Under the pieces are notes generated by a model, which saw only the letters and a list, made by a program, of their open reading frames with translations, searched no databases and was not told the DNA's origin. Positions 138-46,161 of a DNA stretch of 64,000 bases are shown here, one piece after another (the first letter of the stretch is position 1; each line of letters starts with the position of its first letter). The translations under genes and the position numbers were made by a program. The DNA lies in contig JBILLN010000005.1 of the NCBI GenBank assembly GCA_044376085.1, positions 1,125 to 65,124 on the forward strand, written 5' to 3'. Source of the stretch: Bradymonadia bacterium (GTDB lineage: Bacteria; Myxococcota_A; Bradymonadia; UBA7976; UBA1532).

Positions 138-908
138 TCAGAACCGACTCGTGTAACCGATCGCACCGCCGCCCGGCACCATGCCGACGTCGATGCGCCC
201 GGCACCGGCCGAGTCCGCGTCGGCACGCCACCACAGAAAAACCGCCGTTCCAGCGGCGGCCGCCGCGGCCCCGAAACAGACATCCGCCACGAGCGCCCGA
301 GACTCTGCCGTGTCCTTGTGCTTCTGGGCGTCCCGCCGAATCTCCGCATCCCGGGCCGCCTGAGCCTCGCTCAGCGCCTGGAAGCCCATGACAGCGCCGC
401 CCGCCAGCGCGGCCACACCGACCCCCGCGGCGATCCAGGGCCATGGCCCAGGCCCCCGCTCGATGGTTTCGACCTCGACGGGCGCTTCGTCCGCCACGAC
501 CGTCGGCGCCTGGGCGACCGGCTCAGCACCGAGTTGCCGGACCTTGTGGATTACGGCCGTTTCGTCGGCGGGCTGCGTGGCGAGATAGGCGCGGTACCAT
601 TCCACGGCGCCCGGAATGTCCCCCATGCGCTCCCGGCTGCGCGCGACGTTGAAGAGCATGTCGCGGTGACGGGTCAGCGTGTGCGCCTTCTGGAACGCCT
701 GGGCGGCCGCCTCGAAGCGTCCGGCCCGGTAGTGACCGAGGCCGTCGAAGAAGACCGACTCGGCCTCGTCCAGCGTCTTCTGGTCGAGGGCACCGATTTC
801 GCGAATGTCCGTGAGTTCGGCAACGCTCACCGGCGCGCCCGGCGCTGCCTGCGCCGCATGGGTCACCGTGAGAAGGATGCAGAGGCTCGTGGAGAGTCGT
901 GCTTTCAT
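138..908 (-). CDS. Secreted TPR-like protein with a C-terminal single-pass membrane anchor
   Basis: ATG at 908 gives MKARLSTSLCILLTVTHAAQA, a signal peptide. A TPR-like helical hairpin follows, then a C-terminal hydrophobic helix WIAAGVGVAALAGGAVMGF. The start overlaps the upstream stop by 4 nt (ATGA). The track ORF 138..1283 is a 5' over-extension. Confidence 0.7.
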   Translation of the reverse strand: MKARLSTSLCILLTVTHAAQAAPGAPVSVAELTDIREIGALDQKTLDEAESVFFDGLGHYRAGRFEAAAQAFQKAHTLTRHRDMLFNVARSRERMGDIPGAVEWYRAYLATQPADETAVIHKVRQLGAEPVAQAPTVVADEAPVEVETIERGPGPWPWIAAGVGVAALAGGAVMGFQALSEAQAARDAEIRRDAQKHKDTAESRALVADVCFGAAAAAAGTAVFLWWRADADSAGAGRIDVGMVPGGGAIGYTSRF

Positions 909-3900
909 TCGCAGGACTCCAGCACGCCACAGGTCGCGCCGGCCTGGCCGGAGCGCCGGCAGCACCCGAAGAGGGCAGAGACGCCGTCGGCGCCCGCGGA
1001 CGCTCCCTCCCCGCACGCTTCTCGCTGTCCGCCGGCGCCCCCGAGCCCGGGCGTTCCGGGGAAGAGGGCGTCGGGGGCCACCGCATCGGCGTCGAGCACG
1101 TTCCCTTCGTAGTCCTGGAACACGACACTCGACTCGGCCACCGTGTACAACTGCATGCTCACGGGATCGCGTCCTGGCGGGGCCACCCGGAACACGGGGA
1201 ACGACGGTCCGCCGGCGCCGCCGCCGGCGTGGCCACCGCAGCCACCCTTGCCGCCATTTCCGCCATCGCCTCCCGTCCCACACGTCGCGCAGTCCGCAGC
1301 GCGAAGCCCCTTCTGACCGAACGCGGCTCCGGCCTCTCCTTCGGCACCGCTTCCGCCCACGCCGCCGTCTCCGCCCGACGCGCTCCGAATGGTGCTGTTG
1401 ATGACCGTGACGTGCCCACCGACGATGAAGAGGCCGAACGAACCGCCTCCGCCGAAGGCGCCGTTACCGCCCTGCCCACCGCACCCGCCGGCACCACCGC
1501 CGCCACCACCACCGCCCTTGGTCGTCGGCAGACCGGGCCCGCGGCCGCCGCCGCCACCGCCACCACCGCCGCCGCCCGGCGAGCCGTTGCCCGCCCCCTG
1601 CGATTGACGAGGCTGCCAGACGAGCGGAATCGTCGTCCCATTGAACACCAGGTCGAGCACCATGCCCTCCGCGTTCGCCGGCCCGGAGTTCTCGCCATGG
1701 GCGCCCGCCTGGCCCGGCGTCCCTTGATTGCCCGGCTGGCCATCGGCCCCGGCCGGACCGCCGATGCCGTCCGGTGCGGCGGCCGCTTGCCCGTCCCCGC
1801 CGGCGGTGGCGGCTCCGTTCCCGGCAGCAGAGCCGGCACCGTTGCCGCCATCGCCGCCCTCGGTGTTCGCCGGGCAACCGGGATTCTGGCCGCCTGCACC
1901 GCCGACCCCGGGCTGATTGACGGCATCCGCGTTGGCACCGCGGGTCCCGGGCCGAGCGCTGACGCCAGAGCTGCCGTTGCCGCCGTCCCGTCCGGCCGCT
2001 CCCTGCCCGCCGCGGACCTCCACGTCGCGCAAAGTCAGGTGGGTCCCCGCGCTCAGGACATGGATGCCAATCGAGTTCTGCGATGCGTCGGCCGCGTTGC
2101 CGGCGGCCACGACGACGTTGTCCAGCAGCGTCGCGCGATTCAGGTTGCGGTAGCGGAGGACGATCGACGGACCCGTGATCCGCGTCTCGTTCTCTTCCTT
2201 CGCCGCGCGGCTCCAGGCGCGCGTCGCGATGTTGTAGCGGTAGCCGCCATGGATCCGCACGCCGGCCGGAATCTCGAGGGTCGCCGGCAGGTCATAGACA
2301 CCCGCGTCGAGGAGAATCGGTCGATTCAGCTGGTTGGCGGCCACGGAGACGGCGGCCGTCAACGTCCGATAGGGGTTGTCGATGCCGCCCGTGCCGGGTG
2401 GATCCTCGTTGGGATCGTGGCCCTCGACCGCCGACACGAAGATCGCGACGTCCTGGTCACCGTCGACGTTGTCGCAGTTCGAGTCGACGAACTCCGGATC
2501 GGGCTCGTCCGACTCGCCGCGGTTGCACTCGCAGCCGTTCTCCGTGACCCGGTCGTGGTTTTCGAAGTTCCCGGTGCACTCGTCGATTTCACACGCCCCG
2601 GCGACGCAGATCGAAACGGCGTTGGCGAGGGCGCAGCGGTTGCCGCAGACGCCGCAGTTCTCCACGTCGGAGAGCGTGTCGAAGTCCTCGTCCGCTTCGC
2701 CGTCGCAGTCGTTGTCGAGGTTGTCGCACACCTCGGGGACCGAGCCGCCGGCGACTGCTCCGCAGACGACATCATCGCGGGAGTCGGGCTTGCAGATGAG
2801 TTGACCGCTGCGTTCGCACAGGCCGATGCCGACCATGCAGGGCTGACCGATGGACTCGTACCCATTGTCGTTCTGCCCATCGCAGTCGCCGTCGATGGCA
2901 TCCCCACACAGCTCCCGTCCAGCCGCGCCGCCGGCGATCGGCTGACCTTGCGCATCTTCGCAGCGCGTCTGCTGTACGTTGGCCGGATCGCACTGTTCGG
3001 TCCCGGTGACCGCACACGCACCGACGCCCCCGCCGCACTCCTGGCCGATCGGGAACGTCTCGTCGATCTCTCCGTCGCAGTCGTTGTCCCGGCCGTCGCA
3101 GGCTTCTTCGCCTGGCGAGCCGGCCATCGCGCTGCAGGTGGTTCCCGTGCCGTCGGGCGAGCAGACCTGCGTGCTGACGCGCAGGCACTCACCGACACCG
3201 GCGCTGCACTCGATGCCGACCTCGAAGTCCTCGTCGGTTTCGCCGTCGCAGTCGTTGTCGCGCCCGTCACAGGTTTCCGCCGCCGTGCCGGGCTCGGTCA
3301 CCGGAGCTTCCGTCTCGGGGTCCAGACAGGGTCCCCAGACACCGCGCGTCTTGCCGGAATCGACCTGACAGACCTTGATCCCGGACGCGCAATCGCCACG
3401 CCCGGCGCCGCAGGCACGGGTCTCACCGGCGCCTGCGCCGTCGAGCCCGCAGCATTCGAGATCCTGGCCGTCGTCTTCGTCACCGTCGCAGTCGTTGTCG
3501 AGGCCGTCGCAAACCTCGACGCTCGGCTGCCCCGGTGTCGCGTTGCAGGCGACGCCCCCCCCCTGGCAGACGAAACGGCCCTGTCGCTGGCAGACGCCGT
3601 CCCCGACCGAACAGACGTCGCCGACCCGGTTGCCGTCGGCATCCTGGATGTTCTCGTCCTTCTCGCCGTCGCAGTCGTTGTCTTGGCCGTCGCAGGTCTC
3701 GAGCGTCCCCTCGATTCCCTCCTGCCAAGCGGTGTTGCAGGCACCGTCCTTCCCTTTGAAGTCCAGCGTGCCGCCCTCCGAGAAATTCACATCGGGCTGC
3801 TGCAGTTTGAACAGGCAGAACTGCTCCGCGCGGCAGTTGGTGTCACTCGCCCCGTCCGCAGACGGGGGGATCGAATTGGCACCGCCGCAGAGATCCGCCG

Positions 3901-4303
3901 TCGCGCCCTCCGAAAGGAACAGGAGTTCGGCGCGGATCTTGTGTCCGACGGGGAGGTCGAGCTCTGCCGTGGTGGGGTCCGTCGGGGCGATCTTCCCCTC
4001 GGACCACTTGAGCGGCACGTAGTAGGGCGGCGTCTCCGGGGCCTGCACGTCGACGATGATCAGACACGCGTTGACCGGCAGATCGGGCACCTTCTCGGTC
4101 AGCGTGGCCCGACAGGTCGACTTGAGATTGCCGCTCGCGGCGGTCACGTTGCCGCTGGCATCACCGAGGCAGGCCTTGAGATTGAAGTTCAGGTCGACCA
4201 GCGACACTTTCGTCTTCGTCTCTCCGCAGCCGGACACCGAGAAGGCGATCAGCGAGAGGAGGCCGAAAACTCGGGCATGGGATGAACGGATCGCGCCGCG
4301 CAT
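905..4303 (-). CDS. Giant lipoprotein (1133 aa): tandem MopE-like putative metal-binding Cys repeats (CDGxDNDCDGE), a right-handed beta-helix-like segment and a long Gly-rich low-complexity region
   Basis: ATG at 4303 gives MRGAIRSSHARVFGLLSLIAFSVSGC, a lipobox. The C-D-G-x-D-N-D-C-D-G-E motif occurs at least six times. The gene has a beta-helix-like NxxG/hydrophobic ladder and a GGGGGGGGGGG tract. The antisense ORF 899..4285 is a shadow. Confidence 0.8.
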   Translation of the reverse strand: MRGAIRSSHARVFGLLSLIAFSVSGCGETKTKVSLVDLNFNLKACLGDASGNVTAASGNLKSTCRATLTEKVPDLPVNACLIIVDVQAPETPPYYVPLKWSEGKIAPTDPTTAELDLPVGHKIRAELLFLSEGATADLCGGANSIPPSADGASDTNCRAEQFCLFKLQQPDVNFSEGGTLDFKGKDGACNTAWQEGIEGTLETCDGQDNDCDGEKDENIQDADGNRVGDVCSVGDGVCQRQGRFVCQGGGVACNATPGQPSVEVCDGLDNDCDGDEDDGQDLECCGLDGAGAGETRACGAGRGDCASGIKVCQVDSGKTRGVWGPCLDPETEAPVTEPGTAAETCDGRDNDCDGETDEDFEVGIECSAGVGECLRVSTQVCSPDGTGTTCSAMAGSPGEEACDGRDNDCDGEIDETFPIGQECGGGVGACAVTGTEQCDPANVQQTRCEDAQGQPIAGGAAGRELCGDAIDGDCDGQNDNGYESIGQPCMVGIGLCERSGQLICKPDSRDDVVCGAVAGGSVPEVCDNLDNDCDGEADEDFDTLSDVENCGVCGNRCALANAVSICVAGACEIDECTGNFENHDRVTENGCECNRGESDEPDPEFVDSNCDNVDGDQDVAIFVSAVEGHDPNEDPPGTGGIDNPYRTLTAAVSVAANQLNRPILLDAGVYDLPATLEIPAGVRIHGGYRYNIATRAWSRAAKEENETRITGPSIVLRYRNLNRATLLDNVVVAAGNAADASQNSIGIHVLSAGTHLTLRDVEVRGGQGAAGRDGGNGSSGVSARPGTRGANADAVNQPGVGGAGGQNPGCPANTEGGDGGNGAGSAAGNGAATAGGDGQAAAAPDGIGGPAGADGQPGNQGTPGQAGAHGENSGPANAEGMVLDLVFNGTTIPLVWQPRQSQGAGNGSPGGGGGGGGGGGRGPGLPTTKGGGGGGGGAGGCGGQGGNGAFGGGGSFGLFIVGGHVTVINSTIRSASGGDGGVGGSGAEGEAGAAFGQKGLRAADCATCGTGGDGGNGGKGGCGGHAGGGAGGPSFPVFRVAPPGRDPVSMQLYTVAESSVVFQDYEGNVLDADAVAPDALFPGTPGLGGAGGQREACGEGASAGADGVSALFGCCRRSGQAGATCGVLESCE
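2690..3700 (-). repeat. Five or more dispersed near-identical ~15-25 nt DNA repeats (plus strand gtcgcagtcgttgtc) that encode the DNDCDG core of the MopE-like repeats
   Basis: Copies at approximately 2702-2716, 3074-3088, 3245-3259, 3485-3499 and 3668-3682. A variant copy lies near 2880. Confidence 0.7.
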
Positions 4304-4308
4304 GGAAC

Positions 4309-5466
4309 TCACTCGACCTTGAAAAGCGTGGGCGCCCATCGATCGACGACGGGCTGGGCGTCGGCCGGCTTCACGGCCTGCCCGAAGCGGGCCTGCCAGA
4401 ACTGCTCGAGGACGGCGCGATGAGCATCTGCGCCGACCGGAACCGGGTACACGTCCTGTTCGATCGCGCTGTCACGGTAGGTGATGAGCGTCAGCTGCGC
4501 CTGTCCGGCGGTGCCTGGTTCGAGGTATCCGGCGACGAGCACGCGAACACCGAAACGCTCCGCCGCGTCGAACATCACCTCGGTCAGGTAGTCCTCGCTC
4601 GACGCGTCCGGCCCCGTGAAGACAATCTCCGCGAGCGGTTCGTACTCTTCCTTCCGGTTCTTGGCCTCGGTCAGTTTCGCTCGGACGGACTCGCTGGCGC
4701 CGTTCTTCAGGTTCACCAACGTCCCCCAACGGGCAAACCCCGCCTTGCGGACCTCGACGAGATGCGGCCCGGCGGGCAGGAAGGGGTCGACGAACGCCAC
4801 GTCCCGACCGACGACACCCGTCGGTCGGTCGTCCACGTAGACGTGGGCGCCGTCGACCTCGGCGGTGACCCTGAGTTCGGCCGTTCCGGCGATGGTCGTC
4901 GTGCCGCACTTGTCCGCGAGGGGCTCGAACTGCTCGATGGGACCCGCGCTGCCGGCGAGATTGCGGGTCAGCGCCACGTAGGCGCAGTAGGCCTCCCGGG
5001 CCGGCTCCTCCTGCCCCCCGGCCAGCCGGGCGAGGTAGTAGTAGAAGAAGATGCCGCGGAGGAGACCGTGGTCCGTCGCGTACGGAATCCCCTTATTGTA
5101 GAAGCGCTCCGCTCGGAACAACTGCTCCTGCGCTTCGTCGGCGTCTCCCTTTTCCAGCGCCCGCTGCGCGTCGTTGAAGTGGCGGCGAGCGGTCTCGAGA
5201 TCGGCTTTGCTGAGCCGTCCGACGTCGTACCGGAACTCGATGGACTTGGCCCGCGGAGCAGTGGGCTTCAACGTGTGCGCGTGATCGAACATGTTCCGGA
5301 GGTCACGTTCGATGCGCGCGGCGGTGACCGCATCCGTCCCTCGACGAGCGAAGACGAGCGCGGTCGCGCTTTCCTCCGCGGCCATCGCATCCGGCGCGAA
5401 GCCACCGATCGACCAGACGATTGCGGCAACGCACAGCCGCGCGAATCGGACGGACAGGCGTGTCAC
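4309..5466 (-). CDS. Secreted PEGA-domain protein
   Basis: GTG at 5466 gives VTRLSVRFARLCVAAIVWSIGGFAPDAMA, a signal peptide. A PEGA-like block (GAHVYVDDRPTGVV...GPHLVEVRKAGF) is present. GTGA overlaps the upstream stop. The track ORF 4309..6720 over-extends through the TolB-like gene in another frame. Confidence 0.65.
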   Translation of the reverse strand: MTRLSVRFARLCVAAIVWSIGGFAPDAMAAEESATALVFARRGTDAVTAARIERDLRNMFDHAHTLKPTAPRAKSIEFRYDVGRLSKADLETARRHFNDAQRALEKGDADEAQEQLFRAERFYNKGIPYATDHGLLRGIFFYYYLARLAGGQEEPAREAYCAYVALTRNLAGSAGPIEQFEPLADKCGTTTIAGTAELRVTAEVDGAHVYVDDRPTGVVGRDVAFVDPFLPAGPHLVEVRKAGFARWGTLVNLKNGASESVRAKLTEAKNRKEEYEPLAEIVFTGPDASSEDYLTEVMFDAAERFGVRVLVAGYLEPGTAGQAQLTLITYRDSAIEQDVYPVPVGADAHRAVLEQFWQARFGQAVKPADAQPVVDRWAPTLFKVE

Positions 5467-6602
5467 GGGGCGTCCGCCTTCAGATCGGCCAGCGTCAGGG
5501 TGACCAGGTACAGGCGTTCCCAGGTCTTGTCGGTCGACCCCTTCTGCCCGAGCGCCTTGAAGGCCAGCATGACCCGGTCGCCCTTGCCGAACGCCGAGAC
5601 ATCTCCGTTGAGCTGGGTACCGGTGTCGATGGTGCCGTGCGCCGAACCATCGGCCCGGACCCACTTGACCGGGTTGTCCGCCTTGAAGTCCTGCTGAACG
5701 AAGAAGACCGACGCCGAGTCGGGGGCCCAGGCCGGTCCGCCCGACTCGTCGACCACGACGTTGCTGGCGAGCTTCTTGGCGTTCTGGCCGGTCGAGTCGA
5801 CGACCCAGAGATCGAAGACCTTGTCGGACCGGGTGTCCTTGTTGGCGTAGAACGCGATGAGGCGTCCGTCCGGGGACCAGCTCGGCCGAATCTCGTCGCC
5901 CGGCCACTCCGTCACCATGCGGAGGGTCTCCTGCGGCTTGCCGGTGTCCTGGATGACGCCGATGTCCTGCCCTTTGCTGCCGCTCTGGGCACGGGTAAAC
6001 ATCAGGGTCCGGCCGGTCGGGGCGAACTTCGGGTGGAACTCCGTCGCCGTCGGCCAGAACGTCAGCCGAATGGGCGTCGCGTCTCCCTGCAGATCGATCG
6101 CGTAGATATCGCCCGAATCCTTCTGCTGGGAAGCGTAGGCGATGTAACGGCCATCCTTGGACCACGAGGGCTGCCCGTCGTTCCCCGGGTTCTTCGTCAG
6201 CCAGTCGCCGTCCGCGAAGAGGTCGAAGTTCTTGTTCGCGCCGCGGCTGGAGAAGACGTACGGCCGGCTCAGCAGCTTCATGTTCGGCGCCCACTCGAAC
6301 TCGACCACCGGCGGCTTGCGACCGCCGAGGAGATCCGCCGCCTGAGCCCGACCGGCCGAGACCTCGGTCGCATCGCCATCTCGTCGACCATCGGCGGTCA
6401 GGCGCAGAATCCACGTCTCGCGCGTGTCCTTGCTGGGGTCGTAGACCTCGTAGGCGATCTGACTCCCGTCCGGGGCCCAGCGCGGCGCCTGGCAGTGGGC
6501 CGACGGGCGGTCGGCGATCTGCTTGGGCGTGCTGACCTCGGCGCCGGCCATGGCCGGCGCGAGCACGAGAGAGCTGATGAAAAGCGTCTGGGACTTCGTC
6601 AC
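5463..6602 (-). CDS. TolB-like periplasmic beta-propeller protein (PD40/WD40-like repeats)
   Basis: Repeated SWSPDGRLIAF, SWSKDGRYIAY and WAPDGSQIAY motifs. The N-terminus has a signal peptide, TKSQTLFISSLVLAPAMA. The proposed GTG start at 6602 makes a 4-nt GTGA overlap with the upstream stop. The start is uncertain. Confidence 0.65.
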   Translation of the reverse strand: MTKSQTLFISSLVLAPAMAGAEVSTPKQIADRPSAHCQAPRWAPDGSQIAYEVYDPSKDTRETWILRLTADGRRDGDATEVSAGRAQAADLLGGRKPPVVEFEWAPNMKLLSRPYVFSSRGANKNFDLFADGDWLTKNPGNDGQPSWSKDGRYIAYASQQKDSGDIYAIDLQGDATPIRLTFWPTATEFHPKFAPTGRTLMFTRAQSGSKGQDIGVIQDTGKPQETLRMVTEWPGDEIRPSWSPDGRLIAFYANKDTRSDKVFDLWVVDSTGQNAKKLASNVVVDESGGPAWAPDSASVFFVQQDFKADNPVKWVRADGSAHGTIDTGTQLNGDVSAFGKGDRVMLAFKALGQKGSTDKTWERLYLVTLTLADLKADAP

Positions 6603-7393
6603 GGGCGTTCCCTCGCGGCCTGAAGGACGACACTGGCGCGCTGATCGACCTTCGTCTGGTCGTCCTCGGCCAACAGGAAAAAGGCGGCGACACCCGCCGC
6701 GATCGCCACACCACCGGCAATCCCGGCGTACAGCCATACGTTGCTTCCGCCGTCGCTCTCCCGCTTCACGACCTGGAGGAAGAGCTCCACGGTCGGTTGC
6801 GGCTCCCCCTGGGCGAGCGCGAAGGGCACGTTGTTGGCGGTGTAGTCTCCGTATGGAAGATAGATGGTCGTCGGGACCTGGACGTCCGTCGACCGAAAGC
6901 GCTCACGAATGGAGAGGAAGGTCTGCTTCTTCTCCTTGTTGATGATGCCCGTCTTGGCTTCGAGGAAGACGCGGCCCTCCGTATTGGTCTCGCCGGCCGC
7001 GGCCTTGATGGTCACGCCACCGTAGAGGCCCTGCATCTCCTGCTGCCACTCCTCGACCATCTTCTGCTTCCGGGCGTCTTCGCCGGCGAGTGCCTTGGCC
7101 TTCTCGGCCATCGCGAAGGCCGTCTCGAGGACGAGCAGTTTGTAGGCGGCCCGGCCGCGATAGTAGACCGTCGTGAAGTCCGCATCGCCGCCCTTCATCT
7201 TGTAGGCCCGGTCGAGCTGACTCTTGGACTGCGGGAAGCGGTCCTTCTTGAAGTAGAGGATGCCCTGCTCGCGAACCTCCTCGAAGCTGGAGGCCGCGGG
7301 GGCCTCCTCGGCGGCCTCCTGCGCCCGGGCCGGAAGCGCCGGCAGCAAGGCGCTGCCCACACTCGCGACGGTCGCCAGGTAAAAACCTCTCAT
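6599..7393 (-). CDS. Secreted protein with a C-terminal single-pass anchor, similar in architecture to the protein at 138..908
   Basis: ATG at 7393 gives MRGFYLATVASVGSALLPALPARAQE, a signal peptide. The C-terminus has a hydrophobic helix WLYAGIAGGVAIAAGVAAFFLL. ATGA overlaps the DppF-like stop. Confidence 0.6.
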   Translation of the reverse strand: MRGFYLATVASVGSALLPALPARAQEAAEEAPAASSFEEVREQGILYFKKDRFPQSKSQLDRAYKMKGGDADFTTVYYRGRAAYKLLVLETAFAMAEKAKALAGEDARKQKMVEEWQQEMQGLYGGVTIKAAAGETNTEGRVFLEAKTGIINKEKKQTFLSIRERFRSTDVQVPTTIYLPYGDYTANNVPFALAQGEPQPTVELFLQVVKRESDGGSNVWLYAGIAGGVAIAAGVAAFFLLAEDDQTKVDQRASVVLQAARERP

Positions 7394-8418
7394 CCGGTGG
7401 CCTCCTTCGCCTCGGCGGCAAAACACGCGACCCAATGCGTCGGTCCCAGGGAAACCGGACGCGGTCGCTCGTTCGAACAACGGCTCAGAATGCCCAATCG
7501 GGCGCCGAGTTGGCAATCGGCGGCGTGCACGCATCCGCCAGTGGTCAGCCCGCTGCGCTCGGCCGGGTCGAACGGTCGCGGCGCTGCGGCCGCGGACTCG
7601 CCGCCGGTCGAATGGCGCCCCTCCTCGAGAAGGTCCGCCGCCCGCATGAGCTTGTGGGTGTAGGGGTGATGGAACGCCGCGTGCCCCAGCTCGGCAGCGG
7701 GCACTTCCTCGATGATCCGCCCCTTCAACATGACCAGCACCCGCTCGCTGATCTTCCGGACCAGACCGAGGTCGTGGCTGATCAGCAGATAGGCGAGATC
7801 GGGGTCTTTCAGGGTCTTGAGAAGCTCCACCATCTGCTGCTTGATCGCAGCGTCGAGGCCGGACGTCGGTTCATCGGCGACGATGAGCTTCGGCCGAGTC
7901 GCGAGAATGCGAGCGAGTCCGACCCGCCGACGCTCGCCGCCGGACAGACTCGCGGGGCGCTGCTCGGCCCGCGCCGAGAGACCGACGCGACCGAGAAGCT
8001 CCATGGCCTGTGCCGTCCGCCCGTTTGCGTCGAGCTCGGGCCGATGGAGCCGCAGCGACTCGTCCATCATCTCCCGGACCGTCATCTTCGGGTGCAGGTT
8101 GGCGCTCTGGTTCTGGAAGACCATCTGGAATTCGCGGCGGAGCGCGCGCAGCGCCTGGCTCGAAGCACGAAAGACGTCCTGACCATCGAACAGGACCGAG
8201 CCGGCATCCAGCGTCGTCAAGCGCAAGAGCACCTTGCCGAGCGTCGTCTTGCCACTGCCGGACTCCCCGATCAGCGCGACGACCTCGCCCTTGAAAATGT
8301 CGACGTCAACCCCGTCGATGGCGCGGTTCAGCGTCTTGCGCCGAAGGAGCCCCTCGCCGCCGAAGGTCTTCACGAGGCCACGTCCGACCACGAGGGGGAT
8401 GCGCTGCTCGACGGTCAC
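7390..8418 (-). CDS. Oligopeptide/dipeptide ABC transporter ATP-binding protein (DppF/OppF-like)
   Basis: Walker [10 protein letters not shown], signature LSGGERRR and Walker B LIVADEPTSGLD are present. GTG at 8418 overlaps the DppD-like stop as GTGA. The track ORF is over-extended at the 5' end. Confidence 0.85.
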   Translation of the reverse strand: MTVEQRIPLVVGRGLVKTFGGEGLLRRKTLNRAIDGVDVDIFKGEVVALIGESGSGKTTLGKVLLRLTTLDAGSVLFDGQDVFRASSQALRALRREFQMVFQNQSANLHPKMTVREMMDESLRLHRPELDANGRTAQAMELLGRVGLSARAEQRPASLSGGERRRVGLARILATRPKLIVADEPTSGLDAAIKQQMVELLKTLKDPDLAYLLISHDLGLVRKISERVLVMLKGRIIEEVPAAELGHAAFHHPYTHKLMRAADLLEEGRHSTGGESAAAAPRPFDPAERSGLTTGGCVHAADCQLGARLGILSRCSNERPRPVSLGPTHWVACFAAEAKEATG

Positions 8419-9320
8419 GACGCCACCTCCCCGACCGGCAGATCGGCGGCCGCGAGCAGCGTCGCGGTATAGGGGTGGCGTCGGCCCTGCCCGTTCTTGA
8501 GGTCCTCCGCGGAGACGACCTCGACGATGCGACCGTGCCGCATCACGATGATCTCCCGCGCCAAGAACAACACCTCGCGAATGTCGTGGGAGATGTACAT
8601 CATCGCCCGTCGCTCGGCCGCCAGGAGCTCCTGAAAGAGTTCGACGATCTCCTGCCTCACGGTCGTGTCGAGGCCTGTCGTCGGCTCGTCGGCGATGAGC
8701 AGCCGCGGCTGGCGCGCGAGCGCGATGGCGATCATGGCCCGCTGGCACATGCCCCCGGAGAGCTCGTGGGCATAACTCGCGTAGACCCGCGCCGGATCGT
8801 GGAGCTTGACCCGTGCCAGCCAGTCGAGTGACCGACCGCGGACCTCCGCGCGGCTTTGCCCCGGCGATGCCAACCGGACGGATTCGTCGAGCTGCGCACC
8901 GATGGTCATCAGCGGGTCGAGAGACTGCCGCGGATTCTGAAAGACCGCGGTCATCACCCGCCCCCAGAGCGGACGCCACCGACGCTGCACGAGACGATTC
9001 CACCGCCGATCGTCCTTTCGCACCGGACCGCGACTCGGCGTCGAAACGACCGACGGCAGGTCCGCGAGCAGGGACTCGCGCGAGTCGTCCAGCGTGAGGT
9101 CGATGCGGCCGGAAATCACGCCTGGACGGCCCGGTACGAGGCCGAGCACCGCCAGCGTCGAGAGGGTCTTCCCGCTTCCCGACTCACCCAGAATGCCGAG
9201 GACCTCCCCCTGCTGGACGGAGAAGCTCACCCCGTCGACGACCCGTCGACGGCCCGCACTGGTGTCGAACTCGATGACGAGGTCCGCCACCTCGAGCATG
9301 GGTGGGAGATGCTGCGTCAT
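8415..9320 (-). CDS. Oligopeptide/dipeptide ABC transporter ATP-binding protein (DppD/OppD-like)
   Basis: The protein starts [18 protein letters not shown]. Walker [17 protein letters not shown] and [12 protein letters not shown] are present. ATG at 9320 overlaps the permease stop as ATGA. Confidence 0.85.
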
Positions 9321-10135
9321 CGAATGGCCTCTTCGCCACGACGCGCCGCCAGGTTTCCGAACGCCAGGAATCCCGAGATCGTCAGCACGATGGCCGCCGC
9401 GGGCACCAGCCAGGGCCACGCCGAATCCGGCGGAAGGGAGCGCACCTGCGCGACCATGTTGCCCCACGACGGATCCGGCTCCTGAACGCCGTAGTCCCCC
9501 AGGTAGGAGAGACCGGTTTCCACGAAAAGCACGTACCCGAACACGAACGCGGCCTGTCGGACCATGATCGGCCAGCACTGCAACCACAGGATGTGATAGA
9601 CGATCACCCAGACAGGCCTGAATCCATGCGCGATGTGTGCGAGGATGTAGTCCTCGGAGCCGAGCGCTTCGACCTTTCGCCGAATGACGGTCGCGACCGT
9701 GGGAATGAAGAGCACCCCGGCGACGAAGGCGATCAGCGTCACGGACGGATTCCGGATCGTGCAGACCAGAATGATGAAGACGAGCCGGGGCAGCGTATCC
9801 AGGAGTTGGAGCGCACCGGCGATGACGGCGCGAACCGGTCCGGTCGCGTAACCGGCCACGGCGCCGGCCAACGCGCCAATGAAAACGGCGATCGCGGCGG
9901 CCATGAGACCGGGCAGAAAGAAGGCTTCCGTCCCCTTCACGAGACGCATCGCCACGTCCCGGCCCTGCTCGTCCGTGCCCAGGACATGCGCGCCGGAGGG
10001 GACCTCCAGGACGCGGTCGTACGAGACCGCATCCGCCGGTTCGTACGGGATGAACGGCGCGATGCTGCCGAGCAGCACGACCACCAGGACGATCGAGCCG
10101 CTCAACCAGAGACCGAGGCGCGAGAAGCTACCCAT
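9317..10135 (-). CDS. ABC transporter permease (DppC/OppC-like)
   Basis: Multi-pass hydrophobic protein of about 272 aa with a BPD-transporter-like core. It overlaps the DppB-like gene by 8 nt. Confidence 0.85.
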   Translation of the reverse strand: MGSFSRLGLWLSGSIVLVVVLLGSIAPFIPYEPADAVSYDRVLEVPSGAHVLGTDEQGRDVAMRLVKGTEAFFLPGLMAAAIAVFIGALAGAVAGYATGPVRAVIAGALQLLDTLPRLVFIILVCTIRNPSVTLIAFVAGVLFIPTVATVIRRKVEALGSEDYILAHIAHGFRPVWVIVYHILWLQCWPIMVRQAAFVFGYVLFVETGLSYLGDYGVQEPDPSWGNMVAQVRSLPPDSAWPWLVPAAAIVLTISGFLAFGNLAARRGEEAIR

Positions 10136-11120
10136 TCCGGGCGACCTCGCGAGGGTCGACAGCGGCGCGGACGACGTCCGCGACGAGGTTCATCACGATG
10201 ATGGCGAACGTGAAGAGAACGCTGAGCCCGACGACGACCGGGAAATCGCGCTGCTTCGAGGCCTCGAGCAGCAGGTAGCCGGCGCCGTCCAGGGTGAAGA
10301 CGTACTCGACGATGACGACGCCCCCCAGGACGACCGGCAGGCGTGCGGCGAATGCCGAGACGAACGGTACCACCAGGTTGCGAAACGTATGCGGAAGCGT
10401 CGAAGCCCCCTTCGACCGGATGGCCGCGATGAACTGCGCATTCCGGACGGCCAGAATCTCGGCGCGAACGGTATTGAGCATGTCCATGAAGAGTCCGTCG
10501 CCGGCGACGAGCACCAAACCGGCAAAGAAATAGGGCATCACGGACTCCGAATAGATGGGGATCGGGTACCACGGAGGGGTCTCGTACCCTGCGTCTTCGA
10601 CGAACCGCCGAACGAACGCATTCATCCCCTGCGAGAAGAAGATGGCGGCCACGAAGGCCGGCGCAGCCGTCAGAAAATACAGGAGTCCCGTCAACCACTG
10701 TTGCCGCGGCGACGGCTCCCCGAGTGCCACCGCGAGCGCCGTGGCGAGGAAGAGGCACAGGAGGAGCGCCCCGCCGCTCAGCAGCAGCGTCAGCTTGAAC
10801 GCCGGCCGTGCGATGGTCATCACCTGCTCGCCCGGAGCGAAGACCAGCGACTCACCGAAGTCCCCCGTCGCCGACCGACCCAACCAGGTCACGTACCCCG
10901 CGACCGGTGGCTGGTCGAGACCGAAGTCCGCCGCGAGCTTCTCTTTGACCTCAGGCGGCGTCCCCATCGGCGTGATGGCGTCAATGGCGTCACCGGGCGC
11001 CGACCGGATCGTGAAGTAGATCAGGAACGACGCGCCGACGAGCAACAAGAGACCCCCCGCCAGTCGACGCCCGGCCATGAGGACCAGGCCGAGCAGTCGG
11101 TTCAAGGGGAGAGCTCCCAC
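10128..11120 (-). CDS. ABC transporter permease (DppB/OppB-like)
   Basis: The N-terminus NRLLGLVL...FLIYFTIRSAPGDA resembles the DppB N-terminus. The protein has six or more predicted TM segments. It overlaps the binding-protein gene by 19 nt. Confidence 0.8.
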   Translation of the reverse strand: MGALPLNRLLGLVLMAGRRLAGGLLLLVGASFLIYFTIRSAPGDAIDAITPMGTPPEVKEKLAADFGLDQPPVAGYVTWLGRSATGDFGESLVFAPGEQVMTIARPAFKLTLLLSGGALLLCLFLATALAVALGEPSPRQQWLTGLLYFLTAAPAFVAAIFFSQGMNAFVRRFVEDAGYETPPWYPIPIYSESVMPYFFAGLVLVAGDGLFMDMLNTVRAEILAVRNAQFIAAIRSKGASTLPHTFRNLVVPFVSAFAARLPVVLGGVVIVEYVFTLDGAGYLLLEASKQRDFPVVVGLSVLFTFAIIVMNLVADVVRAAVDPREVARNG

Positions 11121-12658
11121 TCCGGGAACGAGGTGAAGTAGTAGAAGGGCTGGATATAGACGTTCCGGACCTTCTTGCTGATGCCCGAGTAGATGTCGAG
11201 GGACCAGAGGAAGTAGTACGGGAGGTCCTGGGCGAGCAGCGCGTGGAGCTGCTTCATCATTTCCTTGTACTTCTTGTAGTCCTTGGTCGCCTTGGCGGTG
11301 TCGAGCAGCGTGTCGACGTCCGCATTATTGTATCCGATGAAGTTCATCGGTCCCTTGCTGTGGAACAGCGGGTAGACGTCCTCGACCTCTTCGAACGACC
11401 AGATGTTCAGCGTCAGGTCGAACTTGCGACGGGTGAAGACCTGGTCGCGATAGCGGGCGTGGTCGACGTAGGTCGGCCGGGTCGTCACGCCGATCTTCTT
11501 GAGCTGCGCCTGAATGCCGAGGAAGAGAGCCTGGTTGCTGGCGAGTTCCTTGTCCATGACGAACTCGAAGTCGAGCTTGAGCTTGCCCTTCATCCGGACA
11601 TCGCCCTTCTTCTTCCACCCGGCGTCTTCGAGCAGCTGATTCGCCCGTTCGAGATCGACCGCGGCCTTCTCCACCTGGAAGTTGTAGAACGGGCTCGACT
11701 CGGTGAACGGCCCCGTCAAGATGTCGCCCCGACCCAGGTGAGCCTCCAGCAGCTCTTCGCGGTCGATCGCGAGGCCGATGGCCTGCCGCACGGGACGCTC
11801 GGCCAACGCCTTGTTCTCGTGGCTGTACGCCATGTACCACCAGGAGACCGTGTGGTACGGCTCGAGCACGACGGAGTCGCTGTTCTCGAAGAGGGCGATG
11901 TTCTTCGGCGGCAGGAAGATGACCGCCTGCACACCGGCCTTCACGCCCGAGTACTGGAGGAGGTTGATCTGGGCCGACTTGTCCGGCGTGTGCTGCATCT
12001 GCACTTCGCCGACCTTGGCCTGGTTCCAGTAGTCCGGATTCTGCTCGAGCGCGATGCTGCGCAGGCTGAACCCCCCCTTCTTCAGACGGAACGGCCCGGT
12101 CCCGACCGGTTCGCGCGCGAACTTGTCCTTGCGGCTGATCGCCGTGCCGGGGAAGGCGTGCTTCGGGATGATCTTCAGCGAGATGAACCGCTTCTCGGCC
12201 TCGGGAATCGGGCGCTCGAACGCGATGTGGACGCCGTACTGCCCCTCTGCGGTCACGTCACGGATGAAGTTGAACTTGCTCTTCGCGTTGAAGATCGTTT
12301 TCGGATCCTGTGCGGCCCGAATCGTGAAGACGACGTCCTCCGCGGTGAACGGCTCTCCGTCGTGCCACTTCACGCCTTCACGCAAGACGAAGCGAATGCC
12401 GCCCTGGTCGTCATCGACCTTCCACGAGGTCGCCAGACCCTTGTCGACGTCGCCCCGCTTGTTCTGGAAGACGAGCGAGTCGAAGATGAGTTCGACCATC
12501 CGGACGGCGCTCATGTCCTCCGCGAAGAACGGCAGCAGCGACGCCGGCCGGGTGTCCTCCGGGTAGTGGAACGTCTGCTGTGCGTTGGCGACCGTCGATC
12601 CGGGACCGAAGAACACGCCGAGGGCAATCGCGATGCGACCGAGAGTGCGCTGGAACAT
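11102..12658 (-). CDS. Periplasmic peptide-binding protein, SBP family 5 (DppA/OppA-like)
   Basis: 518 aa with a signal peptide MFQRTLGRIAIALGVFFGPGSTVANA. The length and conserved blocks (GVKWHDGEPFTAEDVVFT, GTGPFRL) are typical of family-5 binding proteins. Confidence 0.85.
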   Translation of the reverse strand: MFQRTLGRIAIALGVFFGPGSTVANAQQTFHYPEDTRPASLLPFFAEDMSAVRMVELIFDSLVFQNKRGDVDKGLATSWKVDDDQGGIRFVLREGVKWHDGEPFTAEDVVFTIRAAQDPKTIFNAKSKFNFIRDVTAEGQYGVHIAFERPIPEAEKRFISLKIIPKHAFPGTAISRKDKFAREPVGTGPFRLKKGGFSLRSIALEQNPDYWNQAKVGEVQMQHTPDKSAQINLLQYSGVKAGVQAVIFLPPKNIALFENSDSVVLEPYHTVSWWYMAYSHENKALAERPVRQAIGLAIDREELLEAHLGRGDILTGPFTESSPFYNFQVEKAAVDLERANQLLEDAGWKKKGDVRMKGKLKLDFEFVMDKELASNQALFLGIQAQLKKIGVTTRPTYVDHARYRDQVFTRRKFDLTLNIWSFEEVEDVYPLFHSKGPMNFIGYNNADVDTLLDTAKATKDYKKYKEMMKQLHALLAQDLPYYFLWSLDIYSGISKKVRNVYIQPFYYFTSFPEWELSP

Positions 12659-12685
12659 GGGACGAAGGACTCCTTTGGAACTCGA

Positions 12686-14257
12686 TCACTGGCCCGACGC
12701 GGCGCCGCCTTCCTGATCCATCGCACGGATGGTCAGAAGGTCACGCAGCATGTCCGCCGCAGCCGCGACCGCCGGAAAACGCTCGGCGAGGCGGCTGAAG
12801 TATTTGAGTGCGACGCGCGGTCGCCCGATGCGAACGTTTTCTCTGGCAGCCCGCGCCAGGGCGGCGACGCCGTTGCGCGGAGAGGGCGCGAACGCCGCGC
12901 TCTTGTCCTCGGCGTTCTCCAGATGCTTCAGGGCGACCTCGGGTGCTCCGCCGGACGAGGCCGCCTCGGCGAAGCGTCGCTCCACGGCATCCGCGTACCG
13001 CTCGACGAGGTTGAGCGCCGCCACGTCGGCCGCGCCCTTCGCTTCGGCCCCCAGGGCATCGATCTCCGCCCCGACGGTGCGGGCCAGCAACGCGCGGTCT
13101 TCGGGGAACGCTCCGGCATCGAGAGCGCCGCCGGTGGCCGTGGACGCCCAGGTCTTCAGGACCCGGTGGCCGATCGTGTCCGTCGGGAGTCCGGCCACAT
13201 CGGCCTTCGCCCCTTCGGCGTCCCCGGAAGCATGTCGAGCCCGAGCGAGCAACGCCCGCGCCTCCAGCGCGAGGTCCGCCCCCGAGAGCGCGTCCGTCAG
13301 GACGAGGTCGGCGAGCGGGGCCTCCGCCGGTGGTGCCGCGACGAGGGGTTCGAGTACGGTCTTCGCCTCGGCCGACCGACCGAGAAGCAGCAGGGCCCGC
13401 GCCTTGTGCAAGGCGGCCCAGCCCGGCGCCGGCCCGAGCGCTTCGAGCGCCCGCGTGGCGTGAACGCGCACGCCGAGATCGGCCAGTGCCGGGTCACGGA
13501 AGGAAACGGCGCCCTCACCCGGTCCGACGACGACATCCGGGGCGTTGGGCGGGATCTTCTCGAAGCGTGCGACGGCCTCCGTGGAGCGTCCGGCGGCGGT
13601 CAGGGCCGCGACGGCGAGTCGCGCCCCGTACTCCGGGGTCGCCCCGGGCGGGAGCGGTGCGTCCAGGCCTTCGACCTTGCCGGCCAGCAGCGCTGCGAGG
13701 GGACCCGTCGCCCCCGCTTTGGAGGCGGCGACGAGCGCGGCCAGCGGGCCGTCGGTCGCGAGGGCGCTCAGGTCCGGTGGACGGCCCGCACGGGTCGCCA
13801 GTCGTGCGCGCATCCACACGCGCCACGCGGCCCCTTCCGCGCCACCGGCGTCCGTCTTGGCTTCGGCGAGGCGTTCGGTGAGATCGGCCACGACCATCGC
13901 GACCGCGTCGTGCGCGGCCGCCAATTCGAGCGCGGCACGGGCTGCCCCCGTGCGCACCGGGTCGCCGGGCGGGGCCGTGCGAACCCCGGCCTCGAACGCT
14001 TCCAACGCGCCGGCCGGGTCGGACGTGAAGAGCTTGCCCCACCCCGGATTGGACTGGGCGAGCGTACCCAAAGCCGTCGCGTCCTTCGCCACGGCCAGCA
14101 CCCAGCTCTCGCGAACCCGGGCGCGGTCTGCGGACACGTCCACCGCAGGGGCGGAGGGCGCGCCACCCGGTGGACGTGCGGCCCGCTCCGTGCAGCCCGG
14201 ACCGACACCGACCAAGAGAGCGGCGGTCAGAGCGACGCGCCGGACGGAAGGCTTCAT
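12686..14257 (-). CDS. Ala-rich helical (TPR-like) lipoprotein
   Basis: ATG at 14257 gives MKPSVRRVALTAALLVGVGPGC, a lipobox. The composition is highly Ala/Leu-rich and helical-repeat-like. The upstream gene lies 5 nt away. The track ORF has a 5' over-extension. Confidence 0.6.
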   Translation of the reverse strand: MKPSVRRVALTAALLVGVGPGCTERAARPPGGAPSAPAVDVSADRARVRESWVLAVAKDATALGTLAQSNPGWGKLFTSDPAGALEAFEAGVRTAPPGDPVRTGAARAALELAAAHDAVAMVVADLTERLAEAKTDAGGAEGAAWRVWMRARLATRAGRPPDLSALATDGPLAALVAASKAGATGPLAALLAGKVEGLDAPLPPGATPEYGARLAVAALTAAGRSTEAVARFEKIPPNAPDVVVGPGEGAVSFRDPALADLGVRVHATRALEALGPAPGWAALHKARALLLLGRSAEAKTVLEPLVAAPPAEAPLADLVLTDALSGADLALEARALLARARHASGDAEGAKADVAGLPTDTIGHRVLKTWASTATGGALDAGAFPEDRALLARTVGAEIDALGAEAKGAADVAALNLVERYADAVERRFAEAASSGGAPEVALKHLENAEDKSAAFAPSPRNGVAALARAARENVRIGRPRVALKYFSRLAERFPAVAAAADMLRDLLTIRAMDQEGGAASGQ

Positions 14258-14262
14258 CCCGC

Positions 14263-19231: not shown

Positions 19232-19330
19232 GCAGCTCCTGTGAGGACCGGGTCGGATATTAACCCAGCGCGCCGGGAGTGCAAACCAGGAGTGCGGCCC
19301 TGCCCCCTGGCCGATCGCCCTTCGGACGCG

Positions 19331-19358
19331 TTGACCCGCTCCGCTCACCTTGTATAGA
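19331..19358 (+). promoter_or_regulatory. Sigma70-like promoter candidate: TTGACC-16 nt-TATAGA with TG at -15/-14
   Basis: An AT-rich island in GC-rich DNA, about 40 nt upstream of the ATG at 19397 (MKIPS...). It sits in the divergent intergenic region between the kinase and the FCGBP-like lipoprotein. Confidence 0.35.
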
Positions 19359-19396
19359 TCGACACATACAGAAACCTTTCGGAATGTTCCCGCTCC

Positions 19397-45303: not shown

Positions 45304-46161
45304 CTACTTTTGTGACCGACGGCGCGCGATCGCCTGACCCATGCGAATGGTCATCCCGGGTTCGAGCGCCTCGAAGTCGATCTCCCCACGAGCGAACAGG
45401 ACGATGGCCGTGGATCCGAGGTGGAAGACGCCGAGTTCATCGCCGCGCCCGATGGTGATCGGGGGGGCGTAGGTCTTCGAACCGCCGGGCCCCCCACGGT
45501 TCGTCGCGACCGCGTCATCGTACGTCGCGGTAATGTGTCCGACCGAGGTGGCACCGACCATGATTGTCGCAACCTCACCGGCAGGGCCACGAACGAACGT
45601 GACCAGACGTTCGTTCACGCAGAACAGATCCTCGATGTTCTCGACTGCAGCGCGGTTCACGGGCCAAAGGTGCCCGGGCACGTGGCGCGCCTGGAAGATC
45701 TCGCCCTCGACCGGGTGGTGCACGCGGTGGTAGTCGCGCGGACTGAGGTAGATCGTGACCCACGCACCATTCTTGAAGCGCTCACCATCTGCGGTGTCGG
45801 CCAGGAGCTCGTCGAGGCGGTAGTGTCGCCCCTTGGCCTGAAGCAACGTGCCGTCTTCGACGTAGCCGAAGTTCAGGACGCGGCCATCGGCCGGCGAGAC
45901 CGCAACGCCCGGACGTCGGTCGACGGGCCGGGCGCCGAGACGAAGGCGCCGGACGAAAAACGAGCCGAGCGAGTCGAAGGAGGACAACGGCTGCTCGGTC
46001 TCTTCGAGGTCAATGTCGTACAGCCGGGCAAAGGCTCGCACGCTCAGCTGCGCGATCGGTTTCGGAAGCGGCGCGTGAGCAGCAGCGCCGATCACGCGGC
46101 TCCAGGCGTTCTTCGGCAGCAGGCGCAGCGCGCCGAGGTAGAGGGCGTCCTTCACGGTCAC
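45304..46161 (-). CDS. psd: Phosphatidylserine decarboxylase proenzyme
   Basis: YLSPRDYHRVH and the FHLGSTAI self-cleavage site are present. The N-terminus LRLLPKNAWSRVIG resembles E. coli Psd. GTG at 46161 overlaps the giant-TPR stop as GTGA. Confidence 0.9.
   Translation of the reverse strand: MTVKDALYLGALRLLPKNAWSRVIGAAAHAPLPKPIAQLSVRAFARLYDIDLEETEQPLSSFDSLGSFFVRRLRLGARPVDRRPGVAVSPADGRVLNFGYVEDGTLLQAKGRHYRLDELLADTADGERFKNGAWVTIYLSPRDYHRVHHPVEGEIFQARHVPGHLWPVNRAAVENIEDLFCVNERLVTFVRGPAGEVATIMVGATSVGHITATYDDAVATNRGGPGGSKTYAPPITIGRGDELGVFHLGSTAIVLFARGEIDFEALEPGMTIRMGQAIARRRSQK

Follow-up and report, generated by a model that had tools for sequence, protein, structure and literature searches.

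Does a lipoprotein gene that lies beside an ABC importer and combines MopE-type Cys/Asp repeats, a beta-helix and a long glycine tract encode a selected envelope structure, and what might that structure do? The gene occupies positions 905..4303 of the window, the 64,000-nucleotide stretch of DNA that was analysed, on the minus strand, as do all features described below. The open reading frame is intact (1132 aa plus a stop codon at 905-907), and a comparison of starts placed its beginning at 4303 (MRGAIR...), matching orthologs P0001 and P0002. Full-length orthologs were found at identities from 87% (best) down to 33% (most distant). The signal peptide (aa 1-26, ...FSVSG↓C; 4226..4303), as read from the sequence, ends in the lipobox VSG↓C, and at least 90% of the 14 orthologs keep Cys26. 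These data bear out the lipoprotein call of the initial annotation, and each element of the three-part architecture it described is present. The product, intact and conserved, is a cell-envelope lipoprotein from an uncultured, myxobacterium-like lineage.

The lipid anchor is followed by an N-terminal domain (aa 27-200; 3704..4225) that contains seven conserved Cys residues and is confined to its own ortholog group. C64, C80, C139, C157, C163 and C189 were invariant in the ortholog alignment. This domain had no Pfam match, and a word-indexed search with it returned one fragment only. Next come six MopE-type modules of approximately 57-80 aa each (aa 201-545; 2669..3703), delimited using PF11617 and the motif coordinates. 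Each consists of CDGxDNDCDGxxDE followed by a four-Cys knot. Canonical CDGxDNDCDG units start at aa 204, 265, 345, 402 and 526 (cores at 3665-3694, 3482-3511, 3242-3271, 3071-3100 and 2699-2728, respectively), and one degenerate unit, CGDAIDGDCDG, is at aa 466 (2876-2908). About six units had been anticipated, with a profile search named beforehand as a test of the motif; PF11617 matched five stretches of the protein at 69.3 bits, against a cut-off of 27. The accompanying claims that the repeat DNA is near-identical between copies and that the repeats expanded recently did not hold. Specifically, the units share 61-77% DNA identity over 79-92 nt, the common DNA is limited to a core of approximately 17 nt that the conserved amino acids force, and the number of units is six in 14 of 14 orthologs. 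Each module has an even number of Cys residues, all invariant, as expected for disulfides.

A Cys-rich connector (aa 546-595, NCGxCGNxC...C...C...C...GCEC; 2519..2668) links the repeats to a C-terminal module of approximately 540 aa. Its residues C550, C553, C557, C566, C571, C576, C591 and C593 are invariant among the orthologs, and the same connector stands ahead of the module in otherwise unrelated family members. The module starts (aa 596-765; 2009..2518) with an acidic loop, a capping helix and right-handed beta-helix rungs; the loop, DxPDxxFxDSNCDxVDG, constitutes a seventh half-motif at 2459-2485. The glycine-rich core (aa ~766-1035; 1199..2008) was delimited based on triplet phase, conservation and an AlphaFold2 (AF2) model. 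The C-terminal tail (aa 1036-1132; 908..1198) ends in a conserved GCCR...C...L..CE, in which C1114, C1115, C1125 and C1131 are invariant.

The glycine-rich core spans about 270 aa, and glycine makes up 39% of aa 790-1030. In order, it comprises GxxGxx triplets (aa 766-880), a beta-hairpin (aa 880-898), a run of 11 glycines (G11; aa 910-920, 1544..1576), a loop, a run of eight (G8; aa 930-937, 1493..1516) continuing into AGGCGG, a GGGGSFG rung, GGx repeats and a GGPS end. The Gly-dominated tract with 11 consecutive glycines was thus correctly recognized in the initial annotation. By hand arithmetic, a G11 run would be expected by chance roughly 0.008 times in about 240 residues at 39% Gly. The term glycine zipper was misapplied, as the pattern is GxxGxx and GGx triplets rather than GxxxG. 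Similarly, the description of the tract as encoded by GGC/GCC simple repeats applies to about 70 nt of the approximately 720-nt tract, as determined using TRF; it does not extend to the remainder, and both glycine runs mix GGC and GGT codons.

Recent slippage had also been raised for this tract. In its strongest form, this explanation holds that the tract is a disordered, low-complexity linker generated by replication slippage in GC-rich DNA and has no specific structure. The local DNA is indeed 73-77% GC and contains short tandem repeats of period 3 and period 12 at 1485-1576. Nevertheless, run lengths were maintained in orthologs down to 33% identity, with few indels in the region. Of 13 orthologs aligned with G11, 12 had a run of 8-11 residues there; of 13 aligned with G8, 12 had a run of 7-8 residues, the 37%-GC gene L003 among them. 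A 37%-GC ortholog gene retained the G8+G8 pattern, and the target and its 86% ortholog had runs of equal length built from different synonymous codons. Lengths that persist at 33% identity and in a 37%-GC gene, despite synonymous codon exchange inside the runs, argue for selection and not recent slippage. Moreover, no other part of the protein was as well conserved or had as few gaps among orthologs as the glycine region, the same pattern recurred in >5,600 clusters across phyla, and the predicted confidence (pLDDT) of the region exceeded 90. The slippage linker is already contradicted by the conservation data, and we regard it as highly improbable. On the alignment evidence, G11, G8 and the GxxGxx/GGx triplets are under strong purifying selection and represent a selected structural feature.

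The AF2 model of aa 596-1132 had a pLDDT of 94.7 and a pTM of 0.89; it was computed from a MAFFT alignment, and such confidence could be inflated on low-complexity sequence. In this model, pLDDT was mostly 89-98 in the glycine core, averaged 97 in the G11 block and dropped to approximately 79 at the end of the tail. An isolated glycine sub-model was less confident (pLDDT 87). DSSP assigned neither helix nor strand to the core, which is thus predicted to be ordered but neither alpha nor beta. Glycine holds a strict three-residue phase, and the GxxGxx part of the profile drew collagen chains, with heavy compositional bias. Comparable sequences in PGRS proteins, ALK, gp38 and a snow-flea antifreeze protein have been described, using AlphaFold and molecular dynamics, as bundles of polyglycine-II or polyproline-II (PGII/PPII) helices (PMC9436101, PMC13243192, bioRxiv 10.1101/2023.11.25.568672). 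The glycine core may likewise consist of packed polyglycine-II (PPII-type) helices. Only glycine fits in such packing, which would explain the obligate homopolymeric runs.

Searches of solved structures returned no significant match for the beta-helix and glycine module, nor for the glycine part against solved PPII bundles. The likeness to the latter (mycobacterial PGRS, the ALK/LTK glycine-rich domain, phage S16 gp38, snow-flea and springtail antifreeze proteins, and the Obg N-domain) resides in GGx/GxxGxx periodicity, long glycine runs, confident AlphaFold models lacking alpha or beta structure, and an extracellular or surface context (PMC9436101, PMC13243192, bioRxiv 10.1101/2023.11.25.568672). 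The target differs in that beta-helix rungs are joined to its glycine part and interspersed with it. Compared with right-handed parallel beta-helix (pectin-lyase fold) surface proteins, including those of the DUF1565/LIC10774 type and adhesins such as PfbA, the target has few canonical rungs, its solenoid yields to glycine-rich segments lacking strand assignment, and it carries no enzyme signature.

The module, combining beta-helix and glycine core, occurred in 5,661 clusters at E<=1e-30, and full-module matches scored 400-766 bits, mostly at protein C-termini. Other members fuse it to CARDB, Big_2, Calx-beta and PKD, domains typical of extracellular proteins. Homopolymeric G9-11 and G8 runs are a family-wide signature: the longest run was 9-11 residues in 102 of 132 members, and about 60 Gly positions were conserved in at least 90% of those 132 sequences. 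Some members are named 'PE-PGRS family protein' by NCBI; having neither a PE domain nor a mycobacterial origin, they bear a compositional misnomer. The architecture had been called undescribed. This stands for the C-terminal module, which no Pfam or NCBIfam model covers and on which no paper was found. It does not stand for the whole layout, which at least 14 orthologs share, some of them under the label 'MopE-related protein', and the module alone occurs in thousands of proteins.

Gene order and spacing tie the lipoprotein gene closely into a conserved operon of 11 genes, to which a twelfth gene, upstream, may be added. The gene content at 138..14371 corroborates its placement in an ABC-transporter operon. 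Downstream, the start of a gene for a 256-aa protein with a signal peptide, TPR repeats and C-terminal hydrophobic segments (138..908) overlaps the lipoprotein stop codon (ATGA), and this gene is conserved downstream of orthologs. Upstream, the stop codon of a gene for a 385-aa PEGA-domain protein with a signal peptide (4309..5466; PF08308, 23.8 bits; position conserved) lies 5 nt ahead of the lipoprotein start; the joints near the lipoprotein gene are 4-bp overlaps or this 5-nt gap. There follow genes for a 379-aa TolB-like PD40 beta-propeller protein (5463..6602; PF07676, 96 bits; TIGR02800 TolB, E 1.6e-25, below cut-off) and a 264-aa hypothetical envelope protein with a signal peptide and a C-terminal hydrophobic segment (6599..7393; position conserved), for which no family match was obtained. 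Family matches identified the next five genes as an Opp/Dpp/Nik-type ABC importer (7390..12658): two ATPases (7390-8418, 8415-9320), two permeases (9317-10135, 10128-11120) and an SBP_bac_5 binding protein, or SBP (11102-12658). At the head of the set is a 561-aa protein with weak TPR matches (12686..14371), at whose position ortholog loci carry a gene of 499-529 aa. The same gene order surrounds orthologs of 45%, 45% and 33% identity. A functional tie of the lipoprotein to the transporter is suggested by this conserved order alone.

Tol-Pal gene sets of the cell envelope comprise the TolB beta-propeller, the Pal lipoprotein and the TPR protein CpoB. The locus similarly presents a TolB-like PD40 propeller, then, past the PEGA gene, a lipoprotein and a TPR protein, all with export signals. 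Unlike Tol-Pal, it lacks TolQRA, an OmpA-like Pal domain and a TolB N-domain match above cut-off, and has an ABC importer at the upstream position. The comparison is a loose analogy only.

Given this setting, the protein might serve metal acquisition: at the cell surface, its Cys/Asp repeats would bind copper, nickel or a metallophore and pass it to the co-encoded Nik-like importer. Consistent with this, the protein has six copies of PF11617, a 'putative metal-binding motif', MopE and CorA are surface-associated copper proteins (PMC3912023), and the best NCBIfam matches of the SBP are to nickel and metallophore proteins (Opp5A/NikA, 148; NikA, 131; CntA, 98 bits) ahead of DppA (80) and OppA (68). 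However, all of these scores are far below family cut-offs, and among the nearest solved relatives of the SBP are peptide binders such as AppA. PF11617 is not specific and matches only a small motif of MopE/CorA (PMC6189053). The copper site of MopE*/CorA, formed by two His and a kynurenine, is elsewhere in the fold, and these proteins have a separate structural Ca2+ site formed by acidic side chains (PMC3912023). The motif therefore does not imply copper binding, contrary to the MopE-like metal (copper) binding suggested initially. MopE* of methanotrophs has a single copy of the short acidic/Cys motif near its N-terminus (2vov), and its copper-binding beta-sandwich has no counterpart in the target (PMC3912023); homology of the target to MopE is confined to the motif (PMC6189053). 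The sole PDB sequence match was 2vov, over one motif (residues 20-79; E 0.26). Of the 1132 residues of the protein, just 10 are His and 5 are Met, and its Cys pattern is that of disulfides. Metal acquisition thus appears unlikely. Other counterparts are Myxococcota proteins that share the repeated C-D-G-x-D-N-D-C-D-G-x-x-D-E, interleaved Cys knots and a secreted or lipoprotein setting (PF11617). Their NCBI name, 'MopE-related' or 'putative metal-binding motif-containing', which orthologs P0005, P0047 and P0050 also bear, covers the repeat only and is silent on the N-domain, the beta-helix/glycine module and the operon.

The beta-helix could alternatively be a catalytic lyase, hydrolase or esterase that degrades polysaccharide or cell wall, freeing fragments such as prey muropeptides for an Opp-type importer. 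Relatives carry the annotation Bradymonadia, and this class has been described as predatory (PMC11509652). The best beta-helix matches of the module are enzymes, and its profile weakly matches the N-termini of pectinesterases and RG-lyases. Nevertheless, these enzymes align over about 190 of 537 residues at just 14-18% identity, and non-enzymatic adhesins of the same fold (PfbA, UpaB, pertactin and Vag8) score almost level with them. The fold support favours the beta-helix proposed in the initial annotation; the Pfam Beta_helix, pectate lyase and pectinesterase models did not match. Across 132 sequences, the near-invariant non-Gly rung residues were Y, W, R and S, with no conserved acidic/basic catalytic set. 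A degradative enzyme is accordingly quite improbable.

We propose that the lipoprotein is a lipid-anchored envelope protein organized as anchor, stalk and head, with a MopE-type stalk, a polyglycine-II core and a non-catalytic head, and assign this overall explanation a probability of roughly 0.5. The lipid anchor is followed by the ortholog-specific, Cys-containing N-domain and then the six diverged MopE-type modules. These modules may be disulfide-knotted and Ca2+-stabilized through their acidic residues; they would make up an extended, rigid stalk, not a copper site. The C-terminal module begins as a right-handed beta-helix and runs on into the glycine-rich core. The head could provide a binding or scaffolding surface, possibly while complexed with the periplasmic and membrane proteins encoded alongside it; it might, for instance, capture or hold a substrate or partner on behalf of the ABC importer system. 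The lipoprotein would thus have a binding or scaffold role in the envelope. Its C-terminal module is a widespread bacterial domain, representing a very large family without a name in curated databases.

The longest open reading frame of the lipoprotein gene spans 905-4339 on the minus strand. A start at 4339 was discarded in favor of one at 4303 because the orthologs begin with MRGA and position 4303 lies 5 nt past the upstream stop. From 4303 (MRGAIRSS...), the product comprises 1132 residues and agrees with the N-termini of the closest orthologs. It carries a signal peptide with a VSG-C lipobox (...LIAFSVSG-C, aa 18-26), whose cysteine, Cys26, is shared by at least 90% of 14 orthologs; on these features, the product is predicted to be a bacterial lipoprotein. 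A search with the N-terminal domain returned a single fragment, the word-index filter probably being limiting. A pseudogene reading was rejected, as the frame is intact, colinear with the orthologs and without frameshift. The 1128-aa ORF at 899-4285 (+) was likewise rejected as a gene: it is a by-product of the ~70% GC content, and all homology is on the minus strand. Throughout the window, real genes are overlapped by very long ORFs in antisense or alternative frames, among them ones of 1128 and 803 aa; such ORFs are typical of DNA of ~68-70% GC and are not to be counted as genes. One ortholog, P0087 from a MAG, has lost the glycine pattern: it is Arg/Ala/Pro-rich across the glycine region (columns ~1190-1400 of the ortholog alignment) and ends in a long unrelated tail, which looks like an assembly frameshift in GC-rich DNA.

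Searches with aa 596-1132 revealed that the C-terminal half of the protein constitutes a separate module, carried by 500-900-aa proteins of Myxococcota, Gemmatimonadota, Planctomycetota and a Methyloprofundus MAG. A precomputed Pfam domain was absent from nearly all of these proteins. The family consensus opens with DxPDxxFxDSNCDGIDG, a cap helix and a few beta-helix rungs. These are followed by AGxGxxGxxGxxG... triplets leading to W.P, by G9-11, a variable loop and G8-AGGCGG, and finally by GGGGSFG, eight GGx triplets and GGGGGGPS. The longest Gly run measured 9-11 residues in 102 of the 132 members. A profile search of 1.84 billion cluster representatives yielded 5,661 proteins at E ≤ 1e-30; the best matches scored 400-766 bits, covered the whole module and mostly ended at the protein C-terminus. 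Fusion partners among the matches listed were CARDB, Big_2, Calx-beta, PKD, Big_5 and MopE motifs, a set typical of extracellular proteins.

No model for the module was found in Pfam or NCBIfam, the sole signal being a weak match of the cap to the surface-protein model LIC10774 (19-21 bits for the full protein and the module, against a cut-off of 380). Searches of the literature turned up no account of the module, of the operon or of Myxococcota proteins termed 'MopE-related'. Some module proteins bear the NCBI label 'PE-PGRS family protein'. PE_PGRS proteins have an N-terminal PE domain, whereas no PE-domain Pfam match was detected in the lipoprotein or in 15 family members; on myxobacterial genes, the label is a compositional misnomer.

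An AlphaFold2 model of aa 596-1132, based on the 132-sequence alignment, had a mean pLDDT of 94.7 and a pTM of 0.89. The predicted structure contains a right-handed parallel beta-helix of the pectin-lyase fold. The beta-helix proposed in the initial annotation thus stands as a fold but not by Pfam beta-helix or pectate-lyase HMMs: no match to Beta_helix, DUF1565, pectate lyase or pectinesterase was obtained at E ≤ 0.1 using the whole protein or the module. The glycine-rich region extends over aa ~766-1035, with 39% Gly in aa 790-1030, and includes a G11 run (aa 910-920) and a G8 run (aa 930-937). Glycine segments of the 537-aa model had pLDDT values of 89-98 (mean 97 for the G11 block) and were predicted as neither helix nor strand (DSSP '-'); a separate glycine sub-model gave a pLDDT of 87. 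Phase analysis revealed a strict three-residue Gly phase over long stretches, with GGx or third-position Gly in several consecutive segments, and the family consensus also has Gly triplets across consecutive segments. The GxxGxx part of the module profile drew collagens from the PDB, a match with heavy compositional bias.

Such sequences have been described as polyglycine-II/PPII helix bundles or lattices whose inward positions admit only Gly, as in snow-flea antifreeze protein, Obg, gp38, ALK/LTK and AlphaFold models of mycobacterial PGRS (bioRxiv 10.1101/2023.11.25.568672; PMC9436101; PMC13243192). Natural packed glycine-rich PPII proteins are few; published work lists antifreeze proteins, Obg, two carboxylases, phage gp38, ALK/LTK and predicted PGRS domains, and speaks of an 'emerging class'. 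We infer similar PPII-type packing for the glycine core of the module, alternating with residual beta-helix rungs (aa 955-973 and 1034-1040). In the most far-reaching reading, to which we give a probability of about 0.4, the ~540-aa module would be a distinct, unnamed fold class in which a right-handed beta-helix is continued and filled by a polyglycine-II lattice, the core strands being obligatorily pure Gly (G9-11, loop, G8). If so, its >5,600 clusters at 50% identity would make it the largest natural family of glycine-rich PPII-bundle domains by a wide margin, and it would be a bacterial counterpart of the rare ALK/LTK glycine-rich domain, serving in this lineage as the lipoprotein head in a conserved ABC-linked envelope machine.

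The repeats preceding the module raise the question of metal binding. Canonical CDGxDNDCDG units occur at aa 204, 265, 345, 402 and 526; a further unit, at aa 466, is degenerate. An HMM scan bore out the MopE motif recognized in the initial annotation: PF11617 (Cu-binding_MopE) matched five stretches around the recurrent C-x-D-x-D-N-D-C-D-G core with 69.3 bits against a cut-off of 27, and no second Pfam family was matched. The Cys and Asp residues of this core are invariant in the 14 orthologs. In MopE* and CorA, copper is ligated by two histidines and a kynurenine, and a separate structural Ca2+ site is built of acidic side chains (PMC3912023); the copper-binding domain of MopE/CorA is not covered by PF11617 (PMC6189053). 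Using phmmer against the PDB, the repeat array matched only residues 20-79 of MopE* (2vov, E 0.26), the whole protein returned noise, and no homologous copper-binding domain with a His/His/kynurenine site was found. The protein contains 10 His and 5 Met. Based on the site chemistry of MopE*/CorA, the 2vov-only match and this composition, we interpret the six modules as disulfide-knotted acidic units, probably stabilized by Ca2+, that would form a stalk. A related motif has been noted in the cysteine-rich region of teneurins (PMC3278476). MopE-like metal capture, to which the family match would point and the missing copper site would not, appears an unlikely role for the lipoprotein; for genome annotation, a PF11617 match should not be equated with copper binding.

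An enzymatic role, which the pectin-lyase fold might suggest, seems improbable, and the near-invariant columns of the 132 sequences revealed no conserved acidic or basic catalytic set. A third possibility is that the glycine-rich region is a disordered slippage tract, in line with the near-identical repeat DNA and GGC/GCC simple repeats described in the initial annotation. Simple repeats of this kind account for only ~70 nt of the glycine region, not the rest, and the Gly runs are encoded by mixed GGC/GGT codons. The MopE units are 61-77% identical over 79-92 nt and have in common only a core of ~17 nt, which is shared because the conserved residues dictate it. Comparison of repeat number among the 14 orthologs, ranging from 87% to 33-35% identity, placed six units at the same positions in all of them (14/14, down to ~33%). 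The lengths of G11 and G8 are the same in the 86%-identical ortholog although many synonymous positions differ, an ortholog with a 37%-GC gene retains G8 plus G8, and in the ortholog alignment no other part of the protein is as conserved or as free of gaps as the glycine region. The fixed run lengths, the synonymous divergence, the 37%-GC ortholog and the conservation of the region show that selection maintains the Gly runs and that recent slippage did not produce them. Recent repeat expansion or slippage was accordingly discarded on the diverged repeat DNA, the fixed unit number and the conserved glycine sequence, and a disordered slippage tract is highly improbable.

The lipoprotein gene belongs to a series of genes on one strand that overlap by 4 bp or are separated by very small gaps. 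The series begins with a TPR-containing protein (12686-14371, -), followed by a transporter set of the Opp/Dpp/Nik type (7390-12658, -) comprising one SBP_bac_5 binding protein, two BPD_transp_1 permeases and two ABC_tran ATPases on one strand, as in an importer operon. Next come genes for a 264-aa hypothetical protein, a TolB-like PD40 propeller, a PEGA-domain protein and the lipoprotein (all -). The ATG of a 256-aa TPR protein (-), located 3' of the lipoprotein gene, overlaps its stop. N-terminal signal sequences can be read in every product outside the transporter, and C-terminal hydrophobic segments in two of them. Assignment of a substrate did not succeed: the binding protein is a generic peptide/nickel family member whose curated matches were all below cut-off. 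Scanning for promoters and terminators yielded no usable signal in DNA of such high GC content.

The gene order is repeated around orthologs of 45%, 45% and 33% identity. The closest genome is a Myxococcota MAG (86% identity), and more distant orthologs are labelled Bradymonadia. Directly upstream of the first TPR gene is a 569-aa ORF without Pfam match (14263-15972, -). It overlaps the longest ORF of the TPR gene by ~109 nt, so 12686-14371 is a longest-ORF extent with a tentative start. Two ortholog loci have genes of 565-624 aa at this position; the conserved set of 11 genes may therefore extend to 12. In Myxococcus sp. and Cystobacter fuscus (loci L010, 4134-10960, and L011, 4242-11931), a stand-alone module gene has a conserved neighborhood that differs from the ABC operon: upstream are a 580-586-aa protein, with a T2SSE ATPase domain in Cystobacter, and a 304-314-aa hypothetical protein, and downstream is a Ser/Thr kinase.

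Elsewhere in the window, a second PEGA protein is encoded near the operon at 16973-20371 (-). Its length of 1132 aa equals that of the lipoprotein by coincidence, and it combines a Ser/Thr protein kinase domain (aa 400-635, 154 bits) with a C-terminal PEGA domain. A 683-aa protein at 19397-21448 (+) strongly matches IgGFc_binding (PF17517, 215 bits). A single ORF of 3842 aa at 46158-57686 (-) consists almost entirely of TPR repeats matching many Pfam TPR families; in size and type it recalls the giant TPR gliding-motility protein GltI/AgmK of Myxococcus xanthus.

The lipoprotein is novel as a variant of MopE-motif repeat lipoproteins, beta-helix surface proteins and glycine-rich PPII-type domains. 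We propose a lipid-anchored protein in which a rigid stalk carries a beta-helix/polyglycine head; it would have a binding or scaffolding function within an envelope complex that is encoded together with the ABC importer and presumably serves it. Of this picture, the analysis establishes the domain architecture, its conservation and the operon; the disulfide/Ca2+ stalk, the PPII packing and the part played in a complex are inferences. The operon of 11 (possibly 12) genes flags an uncharacterized envelope system in Bradymonadia-like Myxococcota. The chief interest lies less in the single gene than in the module it exposes, which is very large as a family, has no name and carries obligate polyglycine runs. 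In the module, homopolymeric Gly runs retain a fixed length even where the genome is AT-rich, and long Gly runs in GC-rich genomes should not be written off as slippage artefacts. Under the reading of a beta-helix filled by a polyglycine-II lattice, the module would offer comparative data on a large scale and, being easily expressed, a test case for polyglycine-core folding, and an extracellular module in thousands of clusters would alter the picture of few natural PPII-bundle proteins.
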